This document shows, piece after piece, positions 9,471 to 29,598 of a stretch of DNA of 64,000 nucleotides. The stretch is from Pseudomonadota bacterium. Its GTDB lineage: Bacteria > Desulfobacterota > Desulfobulbia > Desulfobulbales > SURF-16. The position numbers and the translations under genes are program-made. The notes beneath the pieces were generated by a model. The model saw only the letters and a list, made by a program, of their open reading frames with translations, did not search any database and had not been told where the DNA came from. The DNA lies in contig JAHJKA010000051.1 in NCBI GenBank assembly GCA_018822545.1, positions 12,570 to 76,569 on the forward strand. The letters run 5' to 3'. Positions within the stretch are counted from its first letter, which is position 1. Every line of letters starts with the position of its first letter.

Positions 9471-10528
9471 CCGTTAAAGCCGGTTCCCGGCCAGTTCTTA
9501 TAATCCCACCGCAAACTGCCGTCAAACTGGCTGCCGTGGGCCCGATGACAAGAAAGACACATGACAATGGCATCATTGGCCTGACCATAGACCACGCTGT
9601 TGAGGGTGGTCGAGGTATCGGCGGTAGCCACCGGCGAAATTACGCTGTAGGGATTCCCCGCCCCCTGATAATCATTGTAATAATAATATTCCGAGGTGCT
9701 GAAGGTGGGGCCCTGCGAGCGGGCATTACTCATATCGTAATCGGTGGGATGGCGGATCCAGACATTATTGGTGAAGATGCCGGCGGAAATTTCACCAGTG
9801 CCATTATGGAAGTCATTATGGCAACGACCACAATGACTGCTGATGGTGCCAGCGCTGTCTGACTCTCCGGTGCGGTCGATACTATAATACTTGTTATGGG
9901 CCGCACTGGTGGGTTGAAACTCATAATCGCCATCTTCCAGACCCTTGACACCTTCGATGAAACGATAACTCTTAGCCACACTACTGCCGTCGTTCCAGGC
10001 CGACATATCATTTTTATGATGGCTGCCCAGCACGGACAGGGTTGGATCGACCTGGCCCTGGGAACCATGACAGCCATAGGTGCCGGCACAGGTAAGCTGA
10101 CTGAGCAATAATGCCCCCCCTGGAGGCTTATTGCCGTGTTCCAGGTCCTGACCTGCAAGATCCACAACGTTATGGCCGGCCCGATTATTGCCCGTGCTGA
10201 CCCAGTAGAAATTACCGCCGGCCAGGGTGTTGCCCTCGGTGCCGGTGGCCCCATAGGTGGGGCCGGCGGCATCAAAGACGTAGGGCACAGAACCGCTGCT
10301 GTTGCCCCCCTGGTGGCAGCCCACACAATCGGTGGTGAGCAGTCCCTTGTTGGCCACCGAGGTGTATGTCTTTACACCGCTGGCCATGGTAAAAGCCATA
10401 GGGCTACCGGCCTGACTGTTGTGCATGGTGTGGCAATTGACACAGGACCCGGAGACCTTGGCCCGGGCAGCCCAGGGCAACACGAGCAGGACGGCTAAGC
10501 ATATCCATATATATTTCTTAGAGTCCAT
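9440..10528 (-). CDS. OmcS-family hexaheme c-type cytochrome (paralogue 1)
   Basis: Blocks match my recollection of Geobacter OmcS: CVNCHTMHNS, AGGNFYWV, AGHNVV, CGRCHNDFHN...WIRHP, MCLSCHRAHGSQFD, C-terminal CAICHTAKD. Five CxxCH plus CAGTYGCH. Confidence 0.85.
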   Translation of the reverse strand: MDSKKYIWICLAVLLVLPWAARAKVSGSCVNCHTMHNSQAGSPMAFTMASGVKTYTSVANKGLLTTDCVGCHQGGNSSGSVPYVFDAAGPTYGATGTEGNTLAGGNFYWVSTGNNRAGHNVVDLAGQDLEHGNKPPGGALLLSQLTCAGTYGCHGSQGQVDPTLSVLGSHHKNDMSAWNDGSSVAKSYRFIEGVKGLEDGDYEFQPTSAAHNKYYSIDRTGESDSAGTISSHCGRCHNDFHNGTGEISAGIFTNNVWIRHPTDYDMSNARSQGPTFSTSEYYYYNDYQGAGNPYSVISPVATADTSTTLNSVVYGQANDAIVMCLSCHRAHGSQFDGSLRWDYKNWPGTGFNGCAICHTAKD

Positions 10529-10537
10529 ACTCCTCCT

Positions 10538-11443
10538 TTACCGCCCAAACACCTGAACCCGATTATTACCCTCATCGACAATGCACAGACGGCCCCAGGG
10601 ATCAAAAAGAATCTCCATGGGATAATAAAGGCTCTGCGGGCCATGGCCCTTATCAAGAAATCTGTATTTGAGCTTGGCCTTGCGATCCAGAACAATCACC
10701 TCGCCCTGATGCCGGTCGAGAATATAGACAAGACCACCGTTATCCAAGGCAAGGGCAACTGGAAACTTCACCAAGTCCGAGATATCTATCCGTTTCGTGA
10801 TTAAACCGTTGTCGCTATAGACATATAGGGTTTTTTCCTGTTGCCCCAAGGCCCATATCTGTTTGTCGACAATCTTGAAATCAACAATACCACCGCTGTT
10901 TTCCGGCAGAGGGAAGCGCTGCTCAATCTTAAAAGAATCCGACAGACGATATATCTGCCCGGTGGCCCTATCCAGAACATAGAGACTGCCCGCCGAGCTT
11001 TCAAGACGGTCGACCATGACTTGCCGCCCCTGATCCTGGACCACCACCCTCGTTGTTTCTTTGCTGGCAAAATCGATTTTGGTCAGGGAGTTTTTGCCCT
11101 TTTCAACAACAACCAGAACCGATTCATCCAGGCGAACCATGTCAAAAGGCTTAAGCAGGCCGCCCTCAGGGCTGAATGTTTTCTGGAAGGCGCCCTGGTC
11201 ATCAAAAGAGGCAAGCCGACCGCCGGCACTGTCCACCATATAATAGCGTTTCTTGTCACCATCCACATAGAGCGCTGTCGGCAAGGCGTCATGGAGGCTC
11301 TTGTCACTCAAAGTGAAGGCTAATTTCCAGGGGCTTGGAGCGTCCGTCGCCCGAACGTGACCGGGGATGGCCAGACAGAAAAGGAGAGCCACAACCCCGG
11401 CCACTGGCAGGGAACATCTTTTTACAATCCAGATGGTATCCAT
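10538..11443 (-). CDS. NHL-repeat beta-propeller protein
   Basis: Repeats ending ...PMEILFDPWGRLCIVDEGNNRVQVFGR. Signal peptide. ATG at 11443 with AGAGGA upstream (the ORF track's GTG is at 11458). Confidence 0.85.
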   Translation of the reverse strand: MDTIWIVKRCSLPVAGVVALLFCLAIPGHVRATDAPSPWKLAFTLSDKSLHDALPTALYVDGDKKRYYMVDSAGGRLASFDDQGAFQKTFSPEGGLLKPFDMVRLDESVLVVVEKGKNSLTKIDFASKETTRVVVQDQGRQVMVDRLESSAGSLYVLDRATGQIYRLSDSFKIEQRFPLPENSGGIVDFKIVDKQIWALGQQEKTLYVYSDNGLITKRIDISDLVKFPVALALDNGGLVYILDRHQGEVIVLDRKAKLKYRFLDKGHGPQSLYYPMEILFDPWGRLCIVDEGNNRVQVFGR

Positions 11444-11667
11444 TTTTTCCTCTAACACCTTTGACGGTAATATTTTTTAAGACCGGCACTCATTTCAGTA
11501 CCACCTCGGAGTCTAGCGCTTACCTGAGGGGTATAAGTGACTCGAAGGTCTCGCTTGCTCGCTATCTGGAGCTAACCAAAAGTAAGTAGTTCCCACAATG
11601 ATTCTCCAGTCTCTCGGAGTCTCGTCCCTCGCTTACCTTTTTTTCGCAAAGGTTAACGATTAAGTCA

Positions 11668-12831
11668 CTAATAGCTTCGGTGACATTGTACACACAGGGC
11701 CTTTTTACCGCTGAGCTTCAGATTATAGCGATACTCAGTGCCCATGGGATCATGACAGGAAAGGCAGGTCATGCCCTGGCCAGTGCGGTGATCAACGATG
11801 TCACTGCCCACCGGATGACTGAACTCACCTTGAGTCTTGTGGCAGCGTGAACAAACAGCATTGCCATCGGCATTGAGCATCACCAGCCTATCTGAGCCAT
11901 GGGCATCATGGCAGTCCGTACATTTCTCGGTCTTCGGATGGGGATGGAGGCTGCGTCGGTTCCGGTCAAAGGTGTCGGTATGGCACGACCGGCAGAGCTG
12001 CTCATAGGGGGCCTTGAGAAGACCCGCTATGTCAGAGGCATGGGGGCTATGACACTCCACGCAGGTGCCATCCCCGGCAAACATATGGGTATGGGGAGCC
12101 AGCATCTGCTCTCTGACCCCGGCATGACAGCTCAGACATAACTCGCTGCCCTTGGCCTCTTTGCCATGACACGAGGTACAACCCTTTTTAAAGGGGGCAT
12201 GACTATTTGCCCGGATCAGGCCCTTGCCTTTGCCGCCATGGGGATTATGGCAGGAGAGACATTTGCCCGCCTTGCCAGGGAAACCCTTATGACCGGCCAA
12301 GGCATCCGGCTGGCTATGACACCCCAGACACAGCTTGTCGCTATCCTCCTTAAGGAGCTGGTAGTTGTCAGCGTTATGGGGCTGGTGACAGGCCACACAG
12401 TTCCCCTCGGCAAAGGGCTTATGTTTCCGCGCAAACTCATTTTTAGCAAGGGACTCATGGCAACTAAAACAGCTGTCGGCAATTGGCCTGCTCAACAAAC
12501 CCTTCTGGGCTGAGGCATGGGGGCTATGACACGCCAGACACTTCCCCTCGCGAACCGGCAGGTGCTGCACCCCTTGACCAAAGGCCTTTTTAGCCTCCCC
12601 ATGACAAGAATAGCAGAGATCGCCACCCTGCTTCTGGAGCAAACCCTTGAATTTGGCGACATGGGGATTATGGCACTGGGTGCATTTACCCTGGGCCACA
12701 GGCTCATGAACAATCTTGCCGCTGAATTCCTTTTTGGGATGACAGCTGATGCATCCCTGCGCAGCCAAGGCAGAATTACAAAATAAGACCAGGACGCCTG
12801 CTGCAAGCAGTATCGCAAAACGAATCTTCAT
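11668..12831 (-). CDS. 16-heme c-type cytochrome (c7/c3-type tandem modules)
   Basis: 16 CxxCH motifs in 387 aa with a regular ...H.PV..G.C..CH.PH... periodicity. Signal peptide ending ALAAQG. The start overlaps the upstream stop (ATGA). Confidence 0.92.
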   Translation of the reverse strand: MKIRFAILLAAGVLVLFCNSALAAQGCISCHPKKEFSGKIVHEPVAQGKCTQCHNPHVAKFKGLLQKQGGDLCYSCHGEAKKAFGQGVQHLPVREGKCLACHSPHASAQKGLLSRPIADSCFSCHESLAKNEFARKHKPFAEGNCVACHQPHNADNYQLLKEDSDKLCLGCHSQPDALAGHKGFPGKAGKCLSCHNPHGGKGKGLIRANSHAPFKKGCTSCHGKEAKGSELCLSCHAGVREQMLAPHTHMFAGDGTCVECHSPHASDIAGLLKAPYEQLCRSCHTDTFDRNRRSLHPHPKTEKCTDCHDAHGSDRLVMLNADGNAVCSRCHKTQGEFSHPVGSDIVDHRTGQGMTCLSCHDPMGTEYRYNLKLSGKKALCVQCHRSY

Positions 12832-14780
12832 CAGTTTCCCTCCCCATGACAGGCCTTGCAGCCCCCCTTCTTAAACGGGGTATGGTGCACCGGATAGAGC
12901 AATCCCTTCTCAGGAGAGCCATGGGGATCATGGCAACTCAAACAGGATGTGCCTTTGGGTTCCATGCCTTGATGAACATTCCGAAAACGAGCGGCCTTGT
13001 TATCATGGCAGGAAAAGCAGAGCTTCGCAGCATCCATCTTCAGAAGGGCCTGAGAAGCCCCACCATGGGGGGCATGGCAAAGCCCACAATCCTGAAGGGC
13101 CGGGGCATGGGCCACCCCATCCTGCCAGTATTGCTGGATATCCTGATGGCAGGTCAGACAGAGTTCAGGTTTCTTTTTCATCAACAGTTTCGCTTCCCCG
13201 GAACCATGGGCGACATGACAAACACCGCAGTTCATGGCAGCCACCGGCGAGTGCACAAATGTACCCGCCTTAACCAGTTTGGCGACATTCTGATGACAGG
13301 AGAGGCAAATCTCCCCTTCAGGCTGGCGCAGAACAAAAGAATTATCGCTGGCATGGGGAACATGACAGGTCTGGCACTTACCCTCCACAAAGGGCGAGTG
13401 CCCATGCTCCTTTTTCTGCTCCGTGGCAGAATTTTTGTGACAGCTCAAACAGAGTTCACCGTTGTCAGTGGATGCTGTTAAGCGATTCTTCAAGGTACCC
13501 TGATGGGGGCTGTGGCACCGACTGCATTCACCGGCAGCAAAGGGCATATGCAGACTAAACTTACCAAGCTCTTCGCCCACCCCCTTATGACATTTGATGC
13601 ACACATCGCCGTCCCGTTTGACGAGAAGGCTTTTTTCCTGGGAGGTATGAGGCAGATGGCAGGTCAGGCACTCTCCTTTGGCGGCCGGAGCATGGCCAAA
13701 GGCGCCCTGGCCATATTTGCCCGGCTCATGGCATTTCCCGCAGAGCGCGACAGGTTCCGCAATGAGTCCCTTATTGGTTGTCTTACCGTGTCCGGCATGG
13801 CAATCAAGACAGGTTCCTTTTTTATAGGGTTCATGACGGCTGCGCATTTTTGCTCCATGCTCATCCGTATGGCACTCTAAACAGAGTCGGTCTGGACTGG
13901 TAACCAGGAGATATGTATCCTCACTGGCATGGGCATCATGACACTTGCTGCAATTGCCCTCCATCACCGGCTTATGAACACCAGCAGCCTTATCATAGAC
14001 GGGCTGATGGCAGGAGACACAAAGGGCATCTGGTTTGGCGGGCGGCAGCAAGGCTCCGCCCTCACCGGCAGCATGGCAGGAGGTACATTTACCACTTGCC
14101 ATGGGTCCATGAACATCGGCCTTCAACAACCCAGGCCCGTCAGAACTATGGGGATTATGGCAACTGACACAGGTGCTGCCGACAACATGACCAAAATGGG
14201 CCTTATTTAAGGCTTCAGCCTTTGCGTCATGACAACTGAGACAAAGGGCATCGGCCTCCTGAACCAGCAGCTTCGGTTGCCCGGCGCTATGGGGATTATG
14301 ACAGAAGGTACAGCCATCTTGCAGAGGAGGATGGACGTTTTTCCGCTCGAAATTTTGTCTGGCGTGGCACTCATAGCACGATTCATTCACTGTTTTTTGC
14401 AACAAATGCTCCTGGGGCGCATTATGGCTGGCGTGACATTTCCCGCACTGGCCCTTCTGCACGGGCTGATGAACAGAGACATCACCCACCGCAGATGCCA
14501 ATTGCTGGTGGCAGCGGAAGCAAAGGCCGGGAGATTCCTGACGCAGAAAAATACCACCTATAATTCCATGGGGGAGATGGCAAGCACTGCAGGCATTATC
14601 AGCCACAGGCTTGTGAACATTCCCTTGCTTAAAAGCAGCTGCCATATCGGCATGGCAATCCTGACATCCCTTGCGCGCAGCCTGCCGGGGGTGCTCCTTA
14701 ACACAGGCACCCAGACCACAGATCAGGACAAACAGGACAATAAACTTACTTGTTTTCCTTAGATTCATTTTGTTGCTCAA
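12831..14780 (-). CDS. 26-heme c-type cytochrome, probable lipoprotein
   Basis: 26 CxxCH motifs in 649 aa. N-terminus FVLICGLGAC is lipobox-like. Same modular repeat as the following 16-heme gene. Confidence 0.92.
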   Translation of the reverse strand: MSNKMNLRKTSKFIVLFVLICGLGACVKEHPRQAARKGCQDCHADMAAAFKQGNVHKPVADNACSACHLPHGIIGGIFLRQESPGLCFRCHQQLASAVGDVSVHQPVQKGQCGKCHASHNAPQEHLLQKTVNESCYECHARQNFERKNVHPPLQDGCTFCHNPHSAGQPKLLVQEADALCLSCHDAKAEALNKAHFGHVVGSTCVSCHNPHSSDGPGLLKADVHGPMASGKCTSCHAAGEGGALLPPAKPDALCVSCHQPVYDKAAGVHKPVMEGNCSKCHDAHASEDTYLLVTSPDRLCLECHTDEHGAKMRSRHEPYKKGTCLDCHAGHGKTTNKGLIAEPVALCGKCHEPGKYGQGAFGHAPAAKGECLTCHLPHTSQEKSLLVKRDGDVCIKCHKGVGEELGKFSLHMPFAAGECSRCHSPHQGTLKNRLTASTDNGELCLSCHKNSATEQKKEHGHSPFVEGKCQTCHVPHASDNSFVLRQPEGEICLSCHQNVAKLVKAGTFVHSPVAAMNCGVCHVAHGSGEAKLLMKKKPELCLTCHQDIQQYWQDGVAHAPALQDCGLCHAPHGGASQALLKMDAAKLCFSCHDNKAARFRNVHQGMEPKGTSCLSCHDPHGSPEKGLLYPVHHTPFKKGGCKACHGEGN

Positions 14781-16380
14781 GCTCCTTGCGTAGCTTACTC
14801 CAGGTCTTGTTGTTTACTTTTATGGCGGATTTCTTCTTAAGCTGATCAAGAAATTCCTTGCGGCTTGCTGCAAACTTTTCATCACTGAGTTTCTTGTCGA
14901 TCTCTTCTTTTACCTGCAAAAACGGCACAGGCATAGCAGGTCTCCGATTGACGACCTTGGCCATGGCAAAATTATGATCCATGGCAAACGGCATACTCAC
15001 CTCGCCCTTATTAAGGGCAAGCAAAGGCCCTTTCAGAGCGGCATCAAGATGACTGACAGGCACCTGTATGACAGGCAGACCGCCAGGAAAATGCTTGGCG
15101 GCAACCTCTAAGAAATCTTCGCCCTGGGTAACGTCCTGGCGCATCCGGTTAATCAATTCTTCTTCCCCTTCGGCAAGAACGTAACTTATCATTTCAGGAT
15201 GGGAGAACTTCTCTTGATTCTCTTCATAATAGGCCTTGGCCTCTGCCTCGTCCAGCTTTGCTTTGGGTTGAATAAAACGTTTCTCAATTTCCTTGGTGAG
15301 CCGATGCTTGCGGTAAAACTGATACACCGCCGCAAAGGGCTCCTTTTCTTCATAATGCCTGTTGATGGCATCCCAGGAAATCAGTGTCTGGGCCAACATA
15401 CTTCCCACCACCCTTTCTTTCAGGCTTTGCGTGTCTTCGGGACTGAAATTATACTGTTTCCTGAACTGACGCTCTTTTGCCATCATGGCCTGCAAAGCGC
15501 CAGCGCTAATATCCCCCTGAGTCGTTGTGACCACAGGCTTCTCCGAGCTTTCAAGATCAAGGGAAGTCTCGCCAATGGTGGCCAAAAATTCTTCATCAAC
15601 GTTGACCTTATATTTTTTCTTCAAATCCTGAACAAGCTTAAAAGTAAGGTCAGCACTGAGCTGGTCCCTGACCTTTGACTGGATGGTTGCCATAACATGA
15701 GCAAAATCTTCTTCTTCCGGGCCTTTTTCATCCACTAAATAAAGGATCATGAAATGCTTGCCCATGGCCTGCGGGGCTGTAACATACCCAGGTTTCTGGC
15801 CATTTAATGATGCAAGCCACTCTTCTTTAATCTGTGGCACGCGCAGCCATTTCGCTTCAGAAAAGAGGGGACCACCATCCGTGACCGTTAATGCCCTCAG
15901 GTCATCCCCGGAGATTGTACCAGCCGCAAGCTCCTTGCCCTTTGCAGCAGCCTGCGTTTCAGTTTCAAAGAAAAAAACCTCGATATTCCAACGAGGACAA
16001 TATTCCTTTTCGTAGACGGCCCACATCTCTGCCCTGGTCGGCGTGGCCTTTGCATCCACTTCCTCGTTTTTAAGTATCATCAGAGAGCGAACCTTCAGAA
16101 AGGTATCCACCTTACGCTGATAGTCCGGTTCACTGTCGAGCTGCATGCGGGTGCCCTCCTGGGCCATGAGCTGCCAGTTGATAAACTCATCAGGAGACTC
16201 AGGGAGCGACATATTTTCTTCCTGCCAGTTCCGCCACCAGTCGCGGTAGTCCTGGGCTGAAAATGTCTCGCCACCAATAGTCACCAGCGAGGCATCATCC
16301 CAAAACCAGGCCCGGGCATCATGACTGATCCCGCCAACAAAAAACAGTGTCCAAAGGACCAACCATGTCAGTTTATGCAT
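14746..16380 (-). CDS. SurA/PpiD-like periplasmic chaperone with a parvulin-type PPIase domain
   Basis: Signal or anchor MHKLTWLVLWTLFFVGG. The C-terminal part ...GEDFLEVAAKHF...LNKGEVSMPFAMDHNFAMAKVVNRR follows the parvulin pattern. ATG at 16380 overlaps the upstream stop. Confidence 0.8.
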   Translation of the reverse strand: MHKLTWLVLWTLFFVGGISHDARAWFWDDASLVTIGGETFSAQDYRDWWRNWQEENMSLPESPDEFINWQLMAQEGTRMQLDSEPDYQRKVDTFLKVRSLMILKNEEVDAKATPTRAEMWAVYEKEYCPRWNIEVFFFETETQAAAKGKELAAGTISGDDLRALTVTDGGPLFSEAKWLRVPQIKEEWLASLNGQKPGYVTAPQAMGKHFMILYLVDEKGPEEEDFAHVMATIQSKVRDQLSADLTFKLVQDLKKKYKVNVDEEFLATIGETSLDLESSEKPVVTTTQGDISAGALQAMMAKERQFRKQYNFSPEDTQSLKERVVGSMLAQTLISWDAINRHYEEKEPFAAVYQFYRKHRLTKEIEKRFIQPKAKLDEAEAKAYYEENQEKFSHPEMISYVLAEGEEELINRMRQDVTQGEDFLEVAAKHFPGGLPVIQVPVSHLDAALKGPLLALNKGEVSMPFAMDHNFAMAKVVNRRPAMPVPFLQVKEEIDKKLSDEKFAASRKEFLDQLKKKSAIKVNNKTWSKLRKELEQQNESKENK

Positions 16381-16970
16381 GCCAACAGCTCTTCTTCTTC
16401 CCATAACCCCAGAATTTCCTTCATCATCTTTTTGCCCAGCTCGCTTACCGTATTGCTCAGGCCAAAATGCATTAATTTTCGATAATCCGTACCCTGTTTC
16501 CCGTGATAGGTAGACCACAACAAGGTTCCATCCTTACCATTATAGACCTGGAGCTGGATTTTAAGGCGGGGATTAACTCGATCACCTTCCACCTGCTCCT
16601 CCATCTCCAAAATCTCGCCGCCAACCAGAAGATCAACCCCCAGGCGAGAAGCGATAATCTGCATCTGTTCCGGGTTGGGCTGGATCCAGGGTCTGAGCCG
16701 CAATTCCCGATAAATCCTCCGGATATCACCCTCCAGTGCCAGACGCCAAGGACGCTGAATGACCAGCTCGGCCATAATCACCCTGTACAATATCTTGTCG
16801 CCCTGACTGTATGCACTTCTGTTTATAAGGGGCAAAACCCCGACGCTACAGGCCTGGACAGGATACCTACTTGCAAACTGCTGAAGATGGGGGCGTTTCC
16901 CGGCGCAACCGCTCAGAGTAAAAAGGCAGCTAAGTGCCATGATCGTATAGATCAAAAATCTTCTACCCAT
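16368..16970 (-). CDS. Lipoprotein with an LpoB/FlgO/CsgG-like (TolB-N-like) domain
   Basis: Lipobox LFTLSGC. Motifs VGVLPLINRS... and LGVDLLVGGEI... are shared with the two neighbouring genes. Confidence 0.7.
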   Translation of the reverse strand: MGRRFLIYTIMALSCLFTLSGCAGKRPHLQQFASRYPVQACSVGVLPLINRSAYSQGDKILYRVIMAELVIQRPWRLALEGDIRRIYRELRLRPWIQPNPEQMQIIASRLGVDLLVGGEILEMEEQVEGDRVNPRLKIQLQVYNGKDGTLLWSTYHGKQGTDYRKLMHFGLSNTVSELGKKMMKEILGLWEEEELLACIN

Positions 16971-18469
16971 ATCTCCCTCAACGCCATCTTATTCACCTCT
17001 TTATCAGCAAAAAAATCGGATTCTCCTTCTGTTTTTTTCTCCTCCACAGGAACCAGGGCTGCCACATTGCGGCGCAGCCGGTTGCCCAGCATATCCTGAG
17101 CATAAAGGCGGTAACTCATGTTCTGGCCGGCAACAGCGGCAAGGGGCATCATAAGACTGCCGGTTGACTCGGTTCCACTGCTTTCCGAAATAATATCACC
17201 GTTCTGGTTCTGAATCTCAAGACGCCAATAGGCAAGGGGTATTTCACCATCATATTCCAGGTTCAGGGCCAGGCTGTTTTCCTGCTCTTTCATGGCCACT
17301 ACTATTTTGGGCTCCCGGCGTATCACCCGGATTGCTTCTTCAGCAAAAGCCTTGTTACCTGCCCTGTCCCAGACCGTAAGATTAATGGTATAAAAGCCAT
17401 CCCCCACCAGAGCACCATTTTTTGCTTGCCCCCACCATGAAAACCGATCTGGCAAACTGTCCCAGCCCTCATCATTCATGATTTCGACACCATCTTTATC
17501 GCGTACTGTCATCAACCAACGACTGATGGGTTCTGGATTTTTCATAAGGGGCACAATGGCCACATTTTTCTGGAGCACGACAATGCCATTAAGCTCCTGA
17601 CCTTTGAGCTGCAGAGTCAAGGCCGGTATCTGGTTATCAACAAGATAACTACCAATAAGCACCTCCTGGTTTGCAACACCAGGGCGAGAAATAGCTGCCA
17701 TTACAGGATAGCGCTCATTTTTGAGCGCAGCCGGCCACGATGCCACAAAACTGTTTTCATCTTCGTGATAGCTGGCCTCAATAATACGCTCATCAACATA
17801 CAAAGAGACTGAAGTATAAAAAAGGCTGGCCGGTAAGACTCCCAACTTGATGCGACAAAGAACCATATCACCAGGCTTTAAGATTTCAGGCCCCATTTCA
17901 ACCGACTCAATAGTCTCACGAATATCCAGGGGCCGACCATGTTGGAAATCAGCAGGAATGGTCAACAGCGCCCTGCGCACCACCATTTCCTCCATCTCAT
18001 CCATGTCCTGGGGCTGTGATAACCCCAACAGACCAATTTCATCGGCACCGGACAACTCAGTACTTTGCGCCCAGATTATCTGCGCGTCTCCGGTCCTGAT
18101 TAATTGCAAGGTGAGACCAAGGGCAAAGGGTTTCTTGACCCGCCGTTGATTCACTGAACCAAGAAGAAGATATTCAACACCAAGGTCATCATGAAGACGG
18201 CGGACATATTGACTGCCAAGATATCCAAGCCAGCGTACCCTATTTTTCACCATAAAGGTGATGACCTCATTTTGATCGGCCATGGCAAAACCCTTTGCCG
18301 CCATACCATCACTAAGCCGCTGGGTAATGGCAAGGTTCAAACCATTCCCCCCACGGCTCAAATCCTCCATGGGCATAACGGCAACCTTAACGCCCTGACT
18401 GAACCCGACATGGGGGTGCAGCGTGGTCAGCATCAAAAGCAGCAGTATGAAGGTTTTACGATAACGCAT
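16952..18469 (-). CDS. Secreted protein: N-terminal LpoB/CsgG-like domain plus C-terminal Ig-like (FlgD-Ig-type) domains
   Basis: Signal peptide. VAVMPMEDLS... and LGVEYLLLGSV... at the N-terminus. The C-terminal beta-rich segments GDGFYTINLTVWDRAGNKA and YRLYAQDMLGN are typical of Ig-like sandwich domains. Confidence 0.7.
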   Translation of the reverse strand: MRYRKTFILLLLMLTTLHPHVGFSQGVKVAVMPMEDLSRGGNGLNLAITQRLSDGMAAKGFAMADQNEVITFMVKNRVRWLGYLGSQYVRRLHDDLGVEYLLLGSVNQRRVKKPFALGLTLQLIRTGDAQIIWAQSTELSGADEIGLLGLSQPQDMDEMEEMVVRRALLTIPADFQHGRPLDIRETIESVEMGPEILKPGDMVLCRIKLGVLPASLFYTSVSLYVDERIIEASYHEDENSFVASWPAALKNERYPVMAAISRPGVANQEVLIGSYLVDNQIPALTLQLKGQELNGIVVLQKNVAIVPLMKNPEPISRWLMTVRDKDGVEIMNDEGWDSLPDRFSWWGQAKNGALVGDGFYTINLTVWDRAGNKAFAEEAIRVIRREPKIVVAMKEQENSLALNLEYDGEIPLAYWRLEIQNQNGDIISESSGTESTGSLMMPLAAVAGQNMSYRLYAQDMLGNRLRRNVAALVPVEEKKTEGESDFFADKEVNKMALREIWVEDF

Positions 18470-18485
18470 CGCCCTTATGGCAACC

Positions 18486-19055
18486 TCAATGGGGTATGGT
18501 GCTCAGTATTTTATCAACAAGGGCCAGCGTGAGCTCAAACGGCCCCACCGAGGCCAGGCCAAAGAGCCGGCGCCAGGCTGAATCGCCACTTTCATGACCG
18601 CTGGCCTGCCAGATCACCAGGCCGCTCTCCACCTCCAGCAGACGCATGGTTACTGATAATTCAGGATACACCACCGCCCCTTTCCGACCCTCGTCGGCAA
18701 GATCAATGGTGCCAAGCATGACAGCCTGGATATTAAGGCGCTGGCCTATGCGCCGCAGAGCCTGACGATCCAGGGGTTTGCCGGGATCAATGGCCTCCTC
18801 GTGGAGAAGACTATCCACCACCCCCTTGTCAATCACGTCAAAAAGCCCCCGGCCAAGAACCTGAGTCATGACGAGATTGCGAACCCGTTCCGGGGCATAT
18901 TCATCCTTGCTGTTATTTTCCAAGGGGAGAACAGCTATGCTTCTGACAAAACCAATATCAATATTTTCCCTGCTGAAACTTTCAAGCCCCCCCCTCATCG
19001 CACAACCAGATGCGCTTAAAGAGAGCAGCAGCAAGACTACAAATATTCTTTTCAT
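18486..19055 (-). CDS. Lipoprotein with an LpoB/FlgO/CsgG-like domain
   Basis: MKRIFVVLLLLSLSASGC lipobox, IAVLPLENNS..., LNIQAVMLGTI... The ORF track's upstream extension to 19286 translates a DNA repeat (RKARKPKRKARKPK) and is not credible. Confidence 0.75.
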   Translation of the reverse strand: MKRIFVVLLLLSLSASGCAMRGGLESFSRENIDIGFVRSIAVLPLENNSKDEYAPERVRNLVMTQVLGRGLFDVIDKGVVDSLLHEEAIDPGKPLDRQALRRIGQRLNIQAVMLGTIDLADEGRKGAVVYPELSVTMRLLEVESGLVIWQASGHESGDSAWRRLFGLASVGPFELTLALVDKILSTIPH

Positions 19056-19140
19056 AATTATATATGCCTCATCATTATATAGTACACCCTCATGAAACCG
19101 GAGGAGGGGTAAACTCTGCAGCCCCGTAAACCGATTTTTT

Positions 19141-19230
19141 GCCACGGAATCCACGGAACCCTCTGAAAAAACCTTTTTTGGTTTCCGTGCCTTCCGTTTT
19201 GGTTTCCGTGCCTTCCGTGGATTCCGTGGC
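19141..19230. repeat. Composite palindromic/tandem repeat element (CCGTGG-type)
   Basis: Perfect 18-bp inverted repeat GCCACGGAATCCACGGAA (19141-19158) / TTCCGTGGATTCCGTGGC (19213-19230). It encloses two tandem ~20-21-bp units GGTTTCCGTGCCTTCCGT.. (19180-19200, 19201-19220). Confidence 0.9.
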
Positions 19231-19298
19231 CAAACTGTAAAGGTACAACCTTGCCAACCAGCACACCATAGCCATTTCAGGTCCAAGCCGTTTCGCTG

Positions 19299-21395
19299 CT
19301 ACATAACAGAAAACCTGGCCACCAATTGCGACTGTACCAGCCACTCTTCCTCGCCCTGACTTTCAGAATAACTGCCATTGCCCTGGATGGTAAAATGGGG
19401 CCCCAGGGACCAGCTGCCAAATAGGGAATATTTATCAATGCGATTGATGGCTTTTGCGTAAATATAGTTCATGGAAAACTGGGTGGTATCTGTGGGAGCC
19501 AAAGAGAGCGAAACGCTAGCCCCTTCACTTTGGCTGTCACTGCCGAGCCACTCCTTGTTGCCGGACACATGCATCGACAGCATATCACTTGCCCGCCAGT
19601 TAATACTGAGATCAGCCCCGGTGGTCTCACTGCCGTCATCGCCCAAGGTGTGTTGATAATCCGTGGTCAGATCAGCGGTAACAGAGGGGACAAGACGGGC
19701 TGTCAGGGTAAGAATGGTGTGATAATTTCTGGTGGTTAGATCGGTGTCTTCTTGTTTGATCCAGCCATAGTTAAGATCAACACTGGCATCCAAATCAGGA
19801 TAGAGGGCTGCCGTGGTAAACAAGCCGACGTTATGATTGACCGACTGACGCTCTGAGCCCTCATATTCTTCAGACCTGGTAAGGCCCATATTGACATCAA
19901 CCGTATCCAGCGGGATGGCGTCCATATTCAGGGTATAGGAACGGCTGGAAGATTCGTCGGCATCGCCGTTCTGGGATTTCGACTCATTCACTCCCACCGT
20001 GGTGGTCAAGGCGGCAAGGGTCTGCCATGTGAGGTGCCCAGCCTGGCTGGAGCGGTCATACTCAACCCCAGAGCCATATTCACCGTTCTCAAAAGAGAGG
20101 TTATAGGTCAGGGTCAGAGTATCAGTCAACCGAGCGCCAAGGTTCAGATCGGTGATCATGCTGGACGAGGTGGAGGTGAGCTCTGCCTTATCCACGCCTG
20201 TGACTCGCTGATAGGCCTCAATTTCTGTAAAATCCACCGTGGTCAAGGGACTTGAGGTGATAACCAGTTTCAGCCACAGATTATTCAAGGCCGGAATGGG
20301 GAATTCAAAACGTTTTTCAGCGCTATTATAGCTGAAAGGCAGTGAGTTCGTACTCAGTTGCCAGTTGCTACCATTATCACTGGTATAGAGGGCAAAGGTG
20401 AAACTTGCAGCCACTGCGGCACGATCTACGGCGGTATACAGGTAGATCTCGTCAATGATCTTAAAATCCGTCTTCATGGCGATGCTATGGGGGGAGGGGA
20501 CATCAATGCCGTTGGTGGCCACAGAAGAGGCTGTGGTCAGATCACCATCATGGAGGGCAGCCACCGCGTTGAGCTCTCCAGCCGTAGTTATGGTTAAGGG
20601 GGCAACGTCGAGACCATGGAGAACCTGGGACAGGCTCTGACGAATCAGGGCAGAGCTTGTCGTGCCAAGGGCCGTAGTGGATTTCTCACGATTTTCGGAG
20701 AACTGGTTGGCAAAACCAAAGGTCAGGCGATTTTGCCACAAACTATGATCGGCCTCCAGGCGGGCAAAATTGCTGGTGCTATCGCTTTGCCGGTCAGTGG
20801 CGATGTTGTTATATTTGTTACGGTTGTAGTTAAAATAGGTTTTAAAAAGCTCAAAATCCCAGTCCAGGGCCACACTTTCATTTTTATTTTCACTATCGGT
20901 TAATCTCGGAGAATTATCATCCTCCTGAAAATCTTCACCGTAGGTGGTCCGCAGATTGGGCCAGAAACGCTTTTCCCAGGAACTGGCCCACACTGCCTCC
21001 CAACTTGCCCTCTTCTGATCGGCAGATATGGTATTACGCTGCTGACTGGCAGAGCCAAAAAGCTCAAAAACAAACAGATCGTTGCTAATGCCAAAACGCA
21101 TGCTGGGATCAACACTCTGGGTGTCGTACTCTTCACGCCAGCCCGAGCTGTAACGCATTGATTCCTGCAAAGACATCGCCTCAGTGACCTCCTGTTTCAG
21201 GTCCAGGGTGTAGGTTAAGAAATACTCATCAGTCGCAACCTCATCCTTACCATCACTGTGAGACCAGTTTGCCGTAAGATCCTGCCCACCTCCTGCTACC
21301 TGAGGCATAATGAGCACACAAAAAAGAAATGACAGAAGAACAACGGTGCGAGAATGTATGCCTTGCCTCATCTCCTCGTTATTTCCTTCTGTCAC
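19299..21395 (-). CDS. Large outer-membrane beta-barrel protein with an internal discoidin (F5/8 type C)-like domain
   Basis: Signal peptide. Long runs of alternating hydrophobic/polar residues at both ends. Central ALHDGDLTTASS...IDEIYLYTA...FALYTSDNGSNWQL...WLKLVITS...DFTEIEAYQ follows the discoidin pattern. Confidence 0.7.
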   Translation of the reverse strand: MTEGNNEEMRQGIHSRTVVLLSFLFCVLIMPQVAGGGQDLTANWSHSDGKDEVATDEYFLTYTLDLKQEVTEAMSLQESMRYSSGWREEYDTQSVDPSMRFGISNDLFVFELFGSASQQRNTISADQKRASWEAVWASSWEKRFWPNLRTTYGEDFQEDDNSPRLTDSENKNESVALDWDFELFKTYFNYNRNKYNNIATDRQSDSTSNFARLEADHSLWQNRLTFGFANQFSENREKSTTALGTTSSALIRQSLSQVLHGLDVAPLTITTAGELNAVAALHDGDLTTASSVATNGIDVPSPHSIAMKTDFKIIDEIYLYTAVDRAAVAASFTFALYTSDNGSNWQLSTNSLPFSYNSAEKRFEFPIPALNNLWLKLVITSSPLTTVDFTEIEAYQRVTGVDKAELTSTSSSMITDLNLGARLTDTLTLTYNLSFENGEYGSGVEYDRSSQAGHLTWQTLAALTTTVGVNESKSQNGDADESSSRSYTLNMDAIPLDTVDVNMGLTRSEEYEGSERQSVNHNVGLFTTAALYPDLDASVDLNYGWIKQEDTDLTTRNYHTILTLTARLVPSVTADLTTDYQHTLGDDGSETTGADLSINWRASDMLSMHVSGNKEWLGSDSQSEGASVSLSLAPTDTTQFSMNYIYAKAINRIDKYSLFGSWSLGPHFTIQGNGSYSESQGEEEWLVQSQLVARFSVM

Positions 21396-21449: not shown

Positions 21450-23207
21450 CTATCTGCTCGGTTTAATCTGGGGTTTATTCCGATCATAGGACTTTGGAGC
21501 ATGGCAGCCCACAACGCAGGTGGCGCCATTCTTGTCTTTGGTTATCGAAATCGGATACGACCAGGCACCAAAAGGCACCTCCGTGCGGATATGTTTCGCC
21601 TGGGTACTGACATGGGGATCATGGCAGGCGATACAACTGCGCCCCTTCTTCATGTTAACATGGAAATAATGGAGGTTGTATTCACCGTCCCTGAAATTGG
21701 TAAGGGTCTTGGTGAATTTCTTCTTGGCGATATCCTTATTATGACAGCCGAAACAGAGCTCATAATTCTCCGGCCGATACTCCATGTAGAATTCCTCCGG
21801 GAAATACTTGGAGAGTATCCGGGTGTTATTGGAACCATGAACATCGTGGCAGGCCATACAGTCACCTGTCTGCACAGGGCCATGACGAAACTGGCTACCT
21901 GCGACCTCGTCGGCCAATTCATCATGGCAGGTGAAACAGAGCTCTTCGGTATTCTTCTTCAGCATGGATTTCACATCGGAAGAATGAGCCCGATGGCAAT
22001 CGGTACAACGCCCCTTCTCCACCGGCTCATGCTTGAATTTTGAATTCTTGATGGCATCATAGAGCTTGGGGCTCTTCTTCTCGTGACAGTCGGCACAGAG
22101 CTGCCCCCCCTCCTTGTGGAGTTGGAAGCGGTTGTCCGAGCTGTGGGGATCATGACATTTATTACAATCATCCTGCACCGGGGCATGCACATACTTCATG
22201 GAAAATTCCTGCTGGCGATCCTTATGGCACTGAAAGCAGACCTCGCCCTTTTCCGGTGAGGCGATCAGCAGACTTTTATACTTGCCGGCATGGGGTCTGT
22301 GGCAGGCGATACAGTCACCGGAGCCCACCGGCCCATGACGATGGCTCTTGGTAAAGATCTTGGATTCATGGCAGTTAAAACAGAGGCTGCTGACACTGGC
22401 GCCATTCCCCCGGAGTTGAAAACGCATGGCAGACTCATGGGGGTTATGGCAGGAAATACAACCCTCGGTAACCGGCTTATGGATGACGCTGTCTTTAAAT
22501 TCTTCAATCTTGGCCTGATGGCAGACCACACATAAATCCTGACCGGTACGGGCAATGGCCATGGCATTATAGGAACCGTGTGGGTTATGGCAGGAAATAC
22601 AGACACCGGCCCCCACGGGGCCATGGACATGCGCGCTCTTGCCCATATCGCTATGACAGCCGCCGGTGGTACAGTTGGCCTTGGCCGGGACATTCCGCTT
22701 GAAATTAAATATACCCCGTTTCAGCTTATGGCATTCCTTGCAGTCGAGTTCGGCAGGATTAGCATGGACATAGAAGCGTTTCAGGCCCGAAGGAGCAGCC
22801 TTGCCCTTTCTCAGGGCTTCAGATTCCAGATAATAGACATGAACTGTTTTCTGTTGCTTGCCGTCGGAGAGAACGATTTCATTATTTCCCTTATCAAGGG
22901 TAATCATGACACCAAAGGCCTGGTTTTCGACCTTGATCTTGCTTTTGGGGGCGTTATTTTTAACGCCCTTGATCTCCAGCTGGGTAACGGTGGTTTCACT
23001 GACAATACCCGCTAAAAAAAGCGCCTTTTCCGTGACCCAGACATTATCGGGGGGAGAAACCACGGTAATAACATTAGCCGCCAAGGCATGACCAGCACCG
23101 ACAGAGAGCAACCCACCCATCAGCAATATAACGGTCACAACAACAGACAACATGCCGATCTGTCTTGAACTTTGCTTCACTCCTTTCAACGTCTCTCCTC
23201 CAAACAT
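21450..23207 (-). CDS. Multiheme c-type cytochrome (14 CxxCH + CX4CH + CX3CH) with an N-terminal Ig-like domain
   Basis: 14 canonical motifs plus CTTGGCH and CVVGCH. TM/signal MLSVVVTVILLMGGLL. The start is uncertain: the ORF is open to 23318, and the ATG at 23207 has GGGGGAA upstream. Confidence 0.88.
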   Translation of the reverse strand: MFGGETLKGVKQSSRQIGMLSVVVTVILLMGGLLSVGAGHALAANVITVVSPPDNVWVTEKALFLAGIVSETTVTQLEIKGVKNNAPKSKIKVENQAFGVMITLDKGNNEIVLSDGKQQKTVHVYYLESEALRKGKAAPSGLKRFYVHANPAELDCKECHKLKRGIFNFKRNVPAKANCTTGGCHSDMGKSAHVHGPVGAGVCISCHNPHGSYNAMAIARTGQDLCVVCHQAKIEEFKDSVIHKPVTEGCISCHNPHESAMRFQLRGNGASVSSLCFNCHESKIFTKSHRHGPVGSGDCIACHRPHAGKYKSLLIASPEKGEVCFQCHKDRQQEFSMKYVHAPVQDDCNKCHDPHSSDNRFQLHKEGGQLCADCHEKKSPKLYDAIKNSKFKHEPVEKGRCTDCHRAHSSDVKSMLKKNTEELCFTCHDELADEVAGSQFRHGPVQTGDCMACHDVHGSNNTRILSKYFPEEFYMEYRPENYELCFGCHNKDIAKKKFTKTLTNFRDGEYNLHYFHVNMKKGRSCIACHDPHVSTQAKHIRTEVPFGAWSYPISITKDKNGATCVVGCHAPKSYDRNKPQIKPSR

Positions 23208-23395
23208 GTTTCCCCCATTCATCAAGCCGCCATGATCATGGCAAGCAGCGTGACAACCTCGACGTTCAGCAAGGGCACGAAGATTTAAAGCATTCGTGAT
23301 CTTGCTGAATCCCGACATGTAAAAAAAGCTGCAGGAGCACTAAGCGCAGACTCCGACTTCGCTCCCACAGCTTATACTAACCAGCATACACGAAA

Positions 23396-23464: not shown

Positions 23465-24631
23465 TTATACATCATCCTTCGTGGTATGACATGCAAAGCA
23501 GCCACTGGTATTTGAGCCGGCATGGGCATCCATCCCAGAGTAATCCCAGCGCAGCAAGTCAGCGTTTGGTGAGCCATGGGCCCGATGGCAGGAGATACAG
23601 GTCACAACCGCATTTCCGTTAGCAGATCCGGCACCACCGATGTAGTCGATGGCTGTCACGATGGTTGCGCCACTCAAGGTGACCGAAGCAACCGGAGCCT
23701 CAAGATTGTAGGCGGTATAACCGGCATACTCCGAGGTTGTGGCCAAAGCACTCATGTCAAAATCCGTAGGGTGCCGTACCCATGGAGAACCAAAGGTGCT
23801 GCTGCTGATATTGCCTGCACCGTTATGGAACGCACCGTGACATTGCGCACAGAGTGAGCTGATTGTCGACGTGGTGTTCGTTGCCTCATCAGAACGGGCA
23901 ACCCCGGAGTAGAGGTTATGATCAGCAGTTGCTTTTGTGGCATCAGCTGTATACTCCCAGTCAGCATCCTCGATGCCGGTAATACCAGACAGCATACGGA
24001 AGGCATCGGACATATCAGTGGTGGAGCCGGCAACATAGCCGTTGGTGGCAGCATTGCCTGGGCCATGATGACCGCCGGCGATGGCGCCGAACTCATCCGT
24101 CGAAGTCGCTGCCCTGTCACCATGACAACCGGTGACACCGGCGCAGGTCAGAGCGGAAGGAAGAGGAACATTAGCGGCACCACCATTGCCAGGTGCAGAC
24201 GTAAGGGTGCTTTCAAGATTTGCAGAAGGAAGGCCAATTACATTATGCCCTGATGCATCGTTACCAGCATTGACCCAATAGAAGTTACCACCAGCCAAGG
24301 TATTCACACCAGCAGCACCGGCCACACCATAGGTGGGCGCAGCAGTACCCAATACAAAAGGCACCGTGCCACCAGCATTATCACCGGTATGACAACCCAC
24401 ACAACCATAACGAAGCAGCGCACCATTTGGCGTATTATCGGCAACAATTGCCGCACCAAAGGCGCCAGTGCTGGCCATAGCCGTACCATCCTGGCTATTA
24501 TGCATGGTATGACAGTTACCACACGGGCCGCTGACCTTGGCTGCTGCCAGTGACGGCAGGGCGAAGGCTGCACTGATGGCAATGACCGCTATCAGCTTGT
24601 TTTTGTCCACATATCTCTTCATCGTTTTCAT
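23465..24631 (-). CDS. OmcS-family hexaheme c-type cytochrome (paralogue 2), first gene of the train
   Basis: CGNCHTMHNS, AGGNFYWV, SGHNVIG, CAQCHGAFHN...WVRHPTD, TCISCHRAHGSPNAD, CFACHTTKD. Five CxxCH plus CAGVTGCH. Signal peptide ending SLAAA. Confidence 0.88.
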   Translation of the reverse strand: MKTMKRYVDKNKLIAVIAISAAFALPSLAAAKVSGPCGNCHTMHNSQDGTAMASTGAFGAAIVADNTPNGALLRYGCVGCHTGDNAGGTVPFVLGTAAPTYGVAGAAGVNTLAGGNFYWVNAGNDASGHNVIGLPSANLESTLTSAPGNGGAANVPLPSALTCAGVTGCHGDRAATSTDEFGAIAGGHHGPGNAATNGYVAGSTTDMSDAFRMLSGITGIEDADWEYTADATKATADHNLYSGVARSDEATNTTSTISSLCAQCHGAFHNGAGNISSSTFGSPWVRHPTDFDMSALATTSEYAGYTAYNLEAPVASVTLSGATIVTAIDYIGGAGSANGNAVVTCISCHRAHGSPNADLLRWDYSGMDAHAGSNTSGCFACHTTKDDV

Positions 24632-24880
24632 CCTCCCTAATTCGGTTTTCCTTACACTTTGGGGGAACCCTCTCCTCTCTCAAAAGAAGGTCTCTCGCCT
24701 CTAAATAGCAGCCGATTTCAGCGTGGCGGCTTCGACTGCCCATGCTCTGTCTCCGTTTTTTTCAGCCCCGGAAACAGCACCCTCATCTATTATGATATAA
24801 CACTCACCAGCAGAGGGCAACCCTCACACCTTCTTCTTCACTCCATAAATCCACAAAGAAGGCCGTATGTATTTTAAACA

Positions 24881-24895
24881 GCAAGGGCCATGCCA
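24881..24895 (-). promoter_or_regulatory. sigma54 (-24/-12) promoter
   Basis: The minus strand reads TGGCATGGCCCTTGC(TG). GG and GC are at consensus spacing against TGGCAC-N5-TTGCW. About 250 nt upstream of the ATG at 24631. Confidence 0.75.
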
Positions 24896-27068: not shown

Positions 27069-27278
27069 TTTTTTTAATGTAATTTTATACTCTTAAGAAC
27101 AAGGATCTTAATCTCGACAGCATCAGGAAGATCCAGAAATCTTTATGAAAAGGGCAAGATTGCAGCAAAGAATTGTTAACCGGCATGGTCCTACCATCAG
27201 TTTGCCAAAGAAATAACAGCGACTGTCAAAGACACGCCAGCCTCAAGATTGACCGGTACTCAACGAAGGGATGATTCT

Positions 27279-28316: not shown

Positions 28317-28407
28317 CGCTATCAAAGAAATCCTCTGGCGGAACGGTAAAACATGCCTCTCTCTCCCCACAACCGCCCCACGCACACCCCATGACCAAGG
28401 TTCGCTT

Positions 28408-29586: not shown

Positions 29587-29598
29587 TCAACAGGCGCG

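Follow-up and report, generated by a model that had tools for sequence, protein, structure and literature searches.

The closest described relative of the locus analysed here, a block of genes on one strand of a 64,000-nucleotide (nt) stretch of bacterial DNA (the window), is the osc (omcS-companion) cluster of Geobacter sulfurreducens, GSU2501-GSU2493, the genetics of which were described by Shen et al. 2025 (Cell Chem Biol 32:239-254; PMC11845295, doi 10.1016/j.chembiol.2024.12.013) and are taken here as summarised in PMC13194489 and bioRxiv 10.1101/2025.11.06.686851. In the first of these summaries, OscH is assigned to folding, OscE, OscF, and OscG to secretion, and OscD to filament morphology; GSU2501 is identified as oscC (encoding an OmcS-like protein), GSU2495 as oscI, and GSU2494 as oscJ; and “473 aligned amino acids” are reported for OscD, which is hence at least 473 amino acids (aa) long (PMC13194489). 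According to the second, an eight-gene block, GSU2500-2493, always accompanies the gene for the GSU2501 hexahaem cytochrome (bioRxiv 10.1101/2025.11.06.686851). GSU2497 is annotated as a lipoprotein (PMC3495685), and the gene for a sigma-54 regulator, GSU2506, adjoins omcS (PMC10599522). Counting from oscC (GSU2501) to oscI (GSU2495), we infer from gene order and numbering that OscD is the propeller, OscE the barrel, OscF the small lipoprotein, OscG the two-domain lipoprotein, and OscH the peptidyl-prolyl isomerase (PPIase); the first of these assignments is consistent with the reported 473 aligned amino acids. The abstract of the original study is said to speak of a “beta-propeller-like OscD,” a “channel-like OscEFG,” and a “prolyl isomerase-containing chaperone OscH.”

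The region of the window between a sigma-54 regulator gene at ∼26.6 kb and a cytochrome gene at ∼5.5 kb is, with good confidence, the core of an osc-type cytochrome-nanowire biogenesis operon of a Desulfurivibrionaceae-like bacterium. An earlier note, made from the sequence alone, had singled out positions 14746-21395 as a candidate secretion and assembly module and knew of no characterised system with this composition. The set of genes is confirmed, but its extent is larger, taking in a 26-haem and a 16-haem cytochrome, an NHL-repeat protein, OmcS homologues, and a propeller down to position ∼5479; and both the parts and their order are those of the osc cluster, so that the locus is an already-described system, characterised in 2025, here with a variant gene architecture. 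Shared with G. sulfurreducens are the neighbouring genes for OmcS-family hexahaem cytochromes, the beta-propeller, the large barrel with three LpoB/PelC-like lipoprotein domains, the SurA-like double-parvulin PPIase, the two large multihaem cytochromes that follow it, and the adjacent sigma-54 regulator; the core order (barrel, lipoproteins, PPIase, cytochromes) is also the same. The sequence of the window is identical to a contig of the metagenome-assembled genome (MAG) GCA_018814345.1, and its nearest relatives are Desulfurivibrionaceae MAGs. The features of the cluster, in window numbering and with all genes on the minus strand, are as follows.

25237-26583, minus: sigma-54-dependent response regulator (Pfam Response_reg, Sigma54_activat with E 3.9e-59, and HTH_8), directly upstream of the cluster
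24880-24895, minus: candidate sigma-54 -24/-12 promoter element TGGCATGGCCCTTGCT, a motif match
23465-24631, minus: OmcS-family hexahaem cytochrome, 388 aa, five CXXCH and one CX5CH; oscC position
21450-23318, minus: multihaem cytochrome, 576-622 aa, 14 CXXCH plus atypical motifs, non-haem N-terminal domain (Pfam Paired_CXXCH_1, E 1.3e-78)
19299-21371 (open reading frame to 21395), minus: large outer-membrane beta-barrel, probably a ∼690-aa precursor, with a discoidin/galactose-binding-like jelly-roll insert; OscE equivalent
19140-19229, minus: RNA stem-loop with an 18-bp perfect stem in the barrel-lipoprotein spacer
18486-19055, minus: PelC/GNA1162/LpoB-like outer-membrane lipoprotein, 189 aa; OscF equivalent
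16952-18469, minus: 505-aa periplasmic protein with a PelC-like N-domain, three Ig/FN3-like domains, and a disordered tail; equivalent of the first OscG domain
16368-16970, minus: PelC-like outer-membrane lipoprotein, 200 aa; equivalent of the second OscG domain
14746-16380, minus: periplasmic SurA/PrsA-like chaperone with parvulin PPIase modules, 544 aa; OscH equivalent
12831-14768, minus: 26-haem cytochrome with a lipobox (GLGAC), 26 CXXCH (Paired_CXXCH_1, E 1e-131); OscI equivalent
11668-12831, minus: 16-haem cytochrome, 16 CXXCH, also recognised by Pfam; OscJ equivalent
10538-11458, minus: NHL-repeat beta-propeller protein (Pfam NHL, E 1.2e-8)
9440-10528, minus: second OmcS-family hexahaem cytochrome, 362 aa, five CXXCH and one CX5CH
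8181-9470, minus: 8-haem cytochrome, kept in related loci
6688-8172, minus: YncE-like beta-propeller lipoprotein with the lipobox LNGC (Pfam YNCE, E 1.3e-10; Lactonase, E 3.9e-10); OscD equivalent
5479-6666, minus: further cytochrome, five CXXCH, at the end of the conserved block

The gene string is tightly packed and runs in one direction, with OmcS-family hexahaem genes on its flanks and the sigma-54 regulator ahead. Consecutive coding regions overlap by 19, 13, 23, and 1 nt, as is typical of a translationally coupled operon, and these overlaps include those of cytochrome genes with the block that encodes the barrel, the lipoproteins, and the PPIase. For the cytochrome gene at 21450-23318, the NCBI gene call gives 576 aa, with the start at about position 23180.

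The family alignment of the PPIase was used to retrieve 31 genomic loci from five lineages, comprising Desulfurivibrionaceae, Hydrosulfovibrio ferrireducens, Thermosulfurimonas, Thermodesulfatator, several Desulfuromonas/Desulfuromonadaceae, and one Desulfobacterales MAG. The order barrel, lipoprotein, 505-aa-type protein, lipoprotein, PPIase, 26-haem cytochrome, 16-haem cytochrome, NHL-repeat protein, OmcS-like cytochrome was found, within contig reach, in all 31. Co-occurrence with OmcS-family genes, which had been set beforehand as a test of the proposed link to these cytochromes, was seen in every locus with enough flanking sequence. The PPIase-based scan reached Desulfuromonas and returned no Geobacter locus, and when the 505-aa protein, the barrel, and the PPIase served as queries in word-indexed protein searches, the relatives found were of Desulfobulbales type only and included no named Geobacter protein. 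Metagenome contigs were also scanned with OmcS residues 7-348 rebuilt from a PDB alignment, which yielded 79 loci with OmcS homologues 53-72% identical to OmcS of G. sulfurreducens. In the Geobacteraceae contigs that stand in for G. sulfurreducens, OmcS is 54-72% identical to the PDB sequence. Approximately 21 of the ∼25 Geobacteraceae contigs that have enough downstream sequence carry osc-type parts after the OmcS gene(s), namely:

YncE-type propeller, 473-499 aa, matching the window propeller with E down to 1e-22 and located between the OmcS-like gene and the barrel gene
barrel of ∼730 aa, E 1e-16 to the window barrel (residues 155-574)
lipoprotein of ∼195 aa, GNA1162/LpoB/CsgG-like, E 5e-21 to the 189-aa protein
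lipoprotein of 380-425 aa with two tandem domains
PPIase with SurA_N and two parvulin domains, E 2e-15 to the window PPIase
multihaem cytochrome after the PPIase, E 7e-115 to the 26-haem cytochrome

In the two-domain lipoprotein, the first domain corresponds to the N-terminal domain of the 505-aa protein and the second (approximately residues 232-371) to the 200-aa protein. Both types of locus encode three PelC-like domains, distributed over one single-domain and one double-domain lipoprotein in Geobacteraceae and over three genes in the window. The gene order of these contigs is that published for oscC to oscI (GSU2501-2495), and each protein of the gene string in the window has a counterpart there, beside genuine OmcS genes and in an equivalent order. 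Several of the Geobacteraceae loci also have NHL genes just upstream of OmcS.

The two OmcS-like cytochromes of the window were compared with known structures. A profile of 24 hexahaem family members, both window genes included, matches OmcS (PDB 6ef8_A) with E 2.6e-24 over residues 7-348. Single window sequences, too far diverged for this, gave nothing significant when compared with the PDB by phmmer, the best match being 7lq5 (E 0.016), which we take to be OmcZ. A CHTMH motif is invariant in the window-type homologues; it presumably contains His16, which Wang et al. are said to have identified in 2019 as the inter-subunit haem ligand of OmcS filaments, and its invariance makes filament formation by these proteins plausible. 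The window-type homologues combine five CXXCH motifs with one CX5CH (C-A-G-T/V-x-G-C-H) at the position of the third haem site of OmcS. This pattern was found in 32 of 35 such sequences (those encoded at 23465-24631 and 9440-10528 and in loci L003-L033), whereas CX5CH is absent from all 46 Geobacteraceae-type homologues, in which each of the six motifs is CXXCH. Judging from the motif, CX5CH may need special haem attachment.

The PPIase gene, which starts at position 16380 and overlaps the stop of the gene for the 200-aa lipoprotein by 13 nt, encodes a parvulin-type chaperone, as had been proposed from its likeness to SurA and PpiD: it matches Pfam Rotamase_2 (E 1.6e-17) and, in profile comparisons, PrsA (1.9e-11) and SurA (1.5e-7). 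Its match to the PPIase of the Geobacteraceae osc-type loci, in which SurA_N is combined with two parvulin domains, is full length (residues 64-523).

The earlier note had also observed that three consecutive genes upstream of the PPIase gene share an N-terminal domain, and this observation stands. The paired motifs on which it rested are all present in the respective reading frames (VGVLPLINRS and LGVDLLVGGEI at 16368-16970, VAVMPMEDLS and LGVEYLLLGSV at 16952-18469, and IAVLPLENNS and LNIQAVMLGTI at 18486-19055, all on the minus strand). BLASTP aligns the 200-aa with the 189-aa protein (E 2e-8) and the 189-aa with the 505-aa protein (E 7e-6); the direct BLASTP comparison of the 200-aa and 505-aa proteins is not significant by itself. 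All three pairs are connected when alignments of the orthologue families are compared by hhalign, with E 6.4e-25 for the 189-aa and 200-aa families, 5.2e-15 for the 189-aa and 505-aa families, and 1.1e-13 for the 200-aa and 505-aa families. Two of the three proteins carry the predicted lipoboxes (...LSASGC in the 189-aa and ...FTLSGC in the 200-aa protein). Most orthologues have them too, among them the Geobacteraceae proteins at the OscF and OscG positions; the 505-aa paralogue has a plain signal peptide without a lipobox. Lipoboxes were also seen on the 26-haem cytochrome (…ICGLGAC) and the YncE-like propeller (…GLNGC), so that several further components of the cluster are probably membrane-anchored lipoproteins.

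The likeness of the shared domain to the fold of LpoB, FlgO, and CsgG was borne out by Pfam and profile searches, which place it in the LpoB/GNA1162/CsgG/PelC superfamily. Taken singly, the three window proteins have marginal Pfam matches to LpoB, GNA1162-like, FlgO, and FlgT_M and none to CsgG; for the 189-aa protein, these include LpoB (E 1e-4, 22.7 against a threshold of 22.3) and GNA1162-like (E 3e-4). Among 23 orthologues of this lipoprotein, 21 match GNA1162-like (best E 3.4e-11), 21 match LpoB (best 4.9e-9), and 6 match CsgG (best 1.2e-8). Scores against the LpoB equivalog model TIGR02722 were 20.6 and 17.5 bits, below its cutoff of 110.55. When the families were compared with PDB sequences as profiles, PelC ranked first for both lipoproteins: chain 9h80_C matched the 189-aa family with E 2e-8 and the 200-aa family with E 7.4e-6, and the PelC homologues 5t11, 5t10, and 5t0z matched the former with 2.2e-8 to 2.4e-7 and the latter with a nonsignificant 0.04-0.24. 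GNA1162 (E 1.7e-6) and LpoB (E 1e-3) were found with the 189-aa family and were not among the matches listed for the 200-aa family, and CsgG was not significant with the 189-aa family (E 3.6). The relationship of these lipoprotein domains to PelC, as it appears from the profiles, is possibly new.

PelC is reported, in work attributed to Marmont et al. (PNAS, 2017), to be an outer-membrane lipoprotein that forms a 12-subunit ring and funnels the Pel polysaccharide into the PelB barrel; the PDB entry 9h80 contains 12 PelC chains. The window resembles this arrangement in encoding small outer-membrane lipoproteins with the same alpha/beta domain beside an outer-membrane barrel. The differences are that the cargo of PelC-PelB is a polysaccharide, whereas the one proposed here is a folded haem protein; that there is a single PelC there and three diverged paralogous domains here; and that PelB is a smaller porin with TPR repeats, whereas the barrel here has ∼28-30 strands and a discoidin-like insert. 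The neighbours of the block are cytochromes, the PPIase, and propellers, with no pel genes among them, and this is not a Pel system. The fold is shared more widely with the CsgG/LpoB/GNA1162/FlgT-FlgO superfamily. CsgG is comparable to the role proposed here in that it exports a fibre subunit that polymerises outside the cell, but its nine subunits, of about 260-280 aa with transmembrane hairpins, form their own 36-strand pore, whereas the window encodes a separate single-chain barrel and shorter lipoproteins (189-200 aa). LpoB is an activator of PBP1B, a context that has no counterpart at this locus.

Upstream of the lipoprotein genes, the earlier note had placed a 698-aa beta-barrel. The AlphaFold2 model (pLDDT, the predicted local distance difference test, of 84) is indeed a barrel, with about 28-30 long strands, and Foldseek matches it to TonB-dependent receptors, MtrB, and the PapC usher; its length is to be revised, being probably ∼690 aa from a later ATG. 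The deposited gene call gives 669 aa, starting MPQVAGG, without a signal peptide. Judged from the sequence, the true start is probably the ATG at 21371 (MRQGIHSRTVVLL..., MRQGIHSRTVVLLSFLFCVLIMPQVAGG...), which is favoured because it restores a signal peptide and because a length of ∼690 aa fits the 687-689 aa of the homologues. In the model, ∼11 long strands are followed by an inserted beta-sandwich domain of ∼125 residues (approximately residues 235-360 in the 669-aa numbering) and then by ∼17-18 further strands. Pfam returned no match for the barrel. A Geobacteraceae orthologue matches OMP_b-brl and, weakly, F5_F8_type_C and NedA-like galactose-binding domains (E 0.002); the nearest PDB sequences in a search with the barrel profile were sialidase and galactose-oxidase jelly-rolls, which were not significant (E 0.11-0.21). 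The insert is conserved in distant orthologues. Since it follows an odd number of strands, the model would place it on the outside, and it is probably a discoidin-like domain in an extracellular loop.

The Ig-like domains ascribed to the 505-aa paralogue were recovered by structure prediction. Its AlphaFold2 model (22-sequence alignment, pLDDT 77) has an N-terminal alpha/beta domain at approximately residues 28-170, three beta-sandwich domains for which Foldseek finds tandem FN3/Ig domains, and a disordered tail of the last ∼30 residues (encoded at 16952-17050). In the whole-chain Foldseek search, Ig/FN3 domains dominate the matches, and the result for the N-terminal domain is uninformative. 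The protein ends in W-x-E-D-F. Neither W501 nor the final residue, F505, varies among the closer homologues of the 22-sequence alignment, and in a set of 62 diverse homologues both are conserved to at least 90%; this tail looks like a short docking motif for the barrel, the ring, the chaperone, or the beta-barrel assembly machinery (BAM). An exhaustive HMMER search with the 505-aa family gave thousands of matches, among them more than 100 full-length clusters but also many giant Ig-repeat proteins that matched the Ig part only; the named members among the representatives looked up were only from Dissulfurirhabdus and Thermodesulfobacteria, with none from Geobacter. In some Geobacteraceae contigs, the protein at the OscG position is 1002 to ∼1580 aa long (L054, 15541-18546; L063, 15782-20533), and in L054 it has four MBG-domain repeats (Pfam MBG_3, E 2.5e-99) ahead of two PelC-like domains. 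Together with the Ig extension of the 505-aa protein, these MBG extensions make a repeat “stalk” on this subunit a recurrent theme.

The role in export or assembly of OmcS-like cytochromes that had been suggested for the module matches the cited osc genetics. By analogy with those data from Geobacter, the PPIase (OscH equivalent) would mature and fold the cytochrome in the periplasm, the barrel and the lipoproteins (OscE, OscF, and OscG equivalents) would bring the OmcS-family cytochrome to the cell surface, and the propeller (OscD equivalent) would affect filament morphology. The idea that the lipoproteins form a ring or plug that works with the barrel finds support, at the level of homology, in PelC, and this homology leads to a ring-on-barrel model. 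The three paralogous alpha/beta domains would come together on the periplasmic side of the outer membrane as a PelC-like ring that encircles the opening of the barrel; this ring, probably hetero-oligomeric, would consist of two lipid-anchored lipoproteins and one soluble protein with an Ig-domain stalk. It would funnel folded, haem-loaded OmcS-family subunits into the ∼28-30-strand barrel or else anchor the base of the filament, while the discoidin-like insert could serve to hold the filament or to guide it as it leaves the barrel, and the 26-haem lipoprotein and the 16-haem cytochrome would deliver electrons to the filament base. A specific version, in which a hetero-oligomeric ring of, e.g., 4 x 3 = 12 subunits, with two lipid-anchored types and one type that bears a three-Ig stalk and the W-x-E-D-F docking tail, lies beneath a barrel with a discoidin domain at the surface, is offered tentatively, as possible rather than probable.

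A different arrangement, which we regard as rather improbable, is a porin-cytochrome conduit, in which the barrel permanently sheathes a cytochrome in the way MtrB sheathes MtrA, and the ring and the PPIase only assist assembly; the sheathed cytochrome could be the base of an OmcS-family filament or part of the 26-haem or the 16-haem protein. MtrAB/Pcc conduits likewise have a large outer-membrane barrel encoded with multihaem cytochromes, and MtrB of the Mtr complex (6r2q_B, TMq 0.42) has the best TM-score among the listed Foldseek matches of the barrel. One close, truncated homologue of the barrel has a precomputed match to PF11854, which we take to be the MtrB/PioB porin family; the block always includes two very large cytochromes that are periplasmic or lipoproteins; and the modelled barrel, at ∼28-30 strands, would be wide enough for a haem protein. 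Here, however, the genes for the lipoprotein ring and the PPIase are additional and the barrel carries a jelly-roll insert; Pfam and NCBIfam find no MtrB or Pcc porin match in the window barrel, the PelC homology points to an export funnel, and the Geobacter genetics, as cited, gives OscE, OscF, and OscG a role in secretion. Conduit and export are also partly compatible with each other, because both would apply if the base of a filament stayed lodged in the pore that exports it. A third possibility is that the module has no connection with cytochromes and serves the envelope instead, either as an exopolysaccharide exporter of the Pel kind or by regulating peptidoglycan synthesis in the manner of LpoB. 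This would agree with the relatives of the domain (PelC in polysaccharide export, LpoB, GNA1162, and CsgG) and with the weak resemblance of the barrel insert to carbohydrate-binding discoidin/galactose-binding domains, but is strongly disfavoured and most improbable, as the block contains no pel, glycosyltransferase, or penicillin-binding protein (PBP) genes, is surrounded by OmcS-family and multihaem genes, with the order unchanged in all loci of the five lineages, adjoins true OmcS in ∼21 of the ∼25 Geobacteraceae contigs, and has coding regions that overlap those of cytochrome genes.

Several points weigh against the assignment of the window to an osc-type export operon. The architecture differs: the two-domain OscG of the Geobacter type is split here into two genes, the first of which has gained three Ig-like domains and the W-x-E-D-F tail and lost the lipobox; the propeller gene lies ∼11 kb downstream instead of directly before the barrel gene; and an extra 576-622-aa cytochrome stands ahead of the barrel, a lineage-specific insertion that, in the comparison of the 31 loci, is found only in those of Desulfurivibrionaceae type. 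The similarity of the barrel to Geobacteraceae barrels is moderate (E 1e-7 to 1e-16) and in some loci does not reach the 1e-3 threshold for a match. The link to G. sulfurreducens is drawn from metagenomic proxies in Geobacteraceae, combined with gene order and with gene numbers taken from the literature, and the roles of the individual Osc proteins are those given in citing papers and reported from the abstract. For the ring, everything from its existence to its stoichiometry and the way it meets the barrel is predicted. Finally, the physiological need for OmcS filaments is itself disputed (PMC11077965). Two further differences from the Geobacter clusters are the CX5CH motif for the third haem and the host, a Desulfurivibrionaceae-like MAG.

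Two noncoding elements, a candidate promoter and a stem-loop, were noted. The element TGGCATGGCCCTTGCT (24880-24895, minus) has one mismatch to TGGCAC-N5-TTGCW and fits in position and orientation, as it directly follows the gene for the sigma-54-dependent response regulator and precedes the first OmcS-family gene by ∼250 nt. A sigma-54 regulator adjoins the cluster in many related loci too. A scan of the whole window for this motif showed no enrichment (51 matches against 46.8 expected), and because the count is not above chance, the element is regarded as a candidate only. The stem-loop at 19140-19229 (minus), which has a folding energy of -42.5 kcal/mol (z -5.3) and an internal direct repeat and is without a U-tract, lies in the 240-nt spacer between the barrel stop and the lipoprotein start, and its sequence occurs once in the window. 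In the nearest relative, locus L003, the equivalent spacer is only 38 nt long, so that conservation is lacking; the stem-loop may act in the processing or stability of the mRNA, or it may represent a small repeat that was inserted.

Divergently from the cluster, at 27249-30873 on the plus strand, the window encodes an AhpC/TSA-TPR protein, a multihaem cytochrome (392 aa), and a second NHL-repeat protein (424 aa), and downstream of these, to about 52 kb, genes for PAS/GGDEF proteins, histidine kinases, and sigma-54 activators are dense. The region has the look of a regulatory island that serves extracellular electron transfer.

Among the central open questions of extracellular electron transfer is the way in which folded multihaem cytochromes get across the outer membrane and form polymers, the nanowires, that are micrometres long. 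The osc machinery is present, its core order unchanged, in a relative of Desulfurivibrio, a member of the order of the cable bacteria, in thermophilic Thermodesulfobacteria, and in Desulfuromonas, which supports the view of it as an ancient, portable module. Its constant features are the three PelC-like domains, the giant barrel with a discoidin-like insert, the double-parvulin chaperone, and the two large cytochromes, and their constancy across different architectures indicates that they are probably essential. The most useful additions made here are the relationship to PelC and the constancy of the three PelC-like domains, the former leading to the hypothesis of a definite structure, a funnel-like ring seated on the barrel. 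Should the specific, tentative version of the hetero-oligomeric ring hold, the Pel-type design of a lipoprotein ring plus a barrel would have been put to a second use, the export or anchoring of a polymer of folded, haem-loaded protein, and this would constitute a route of protein secretion across the outer membrane apart from the numbered secretion systems.

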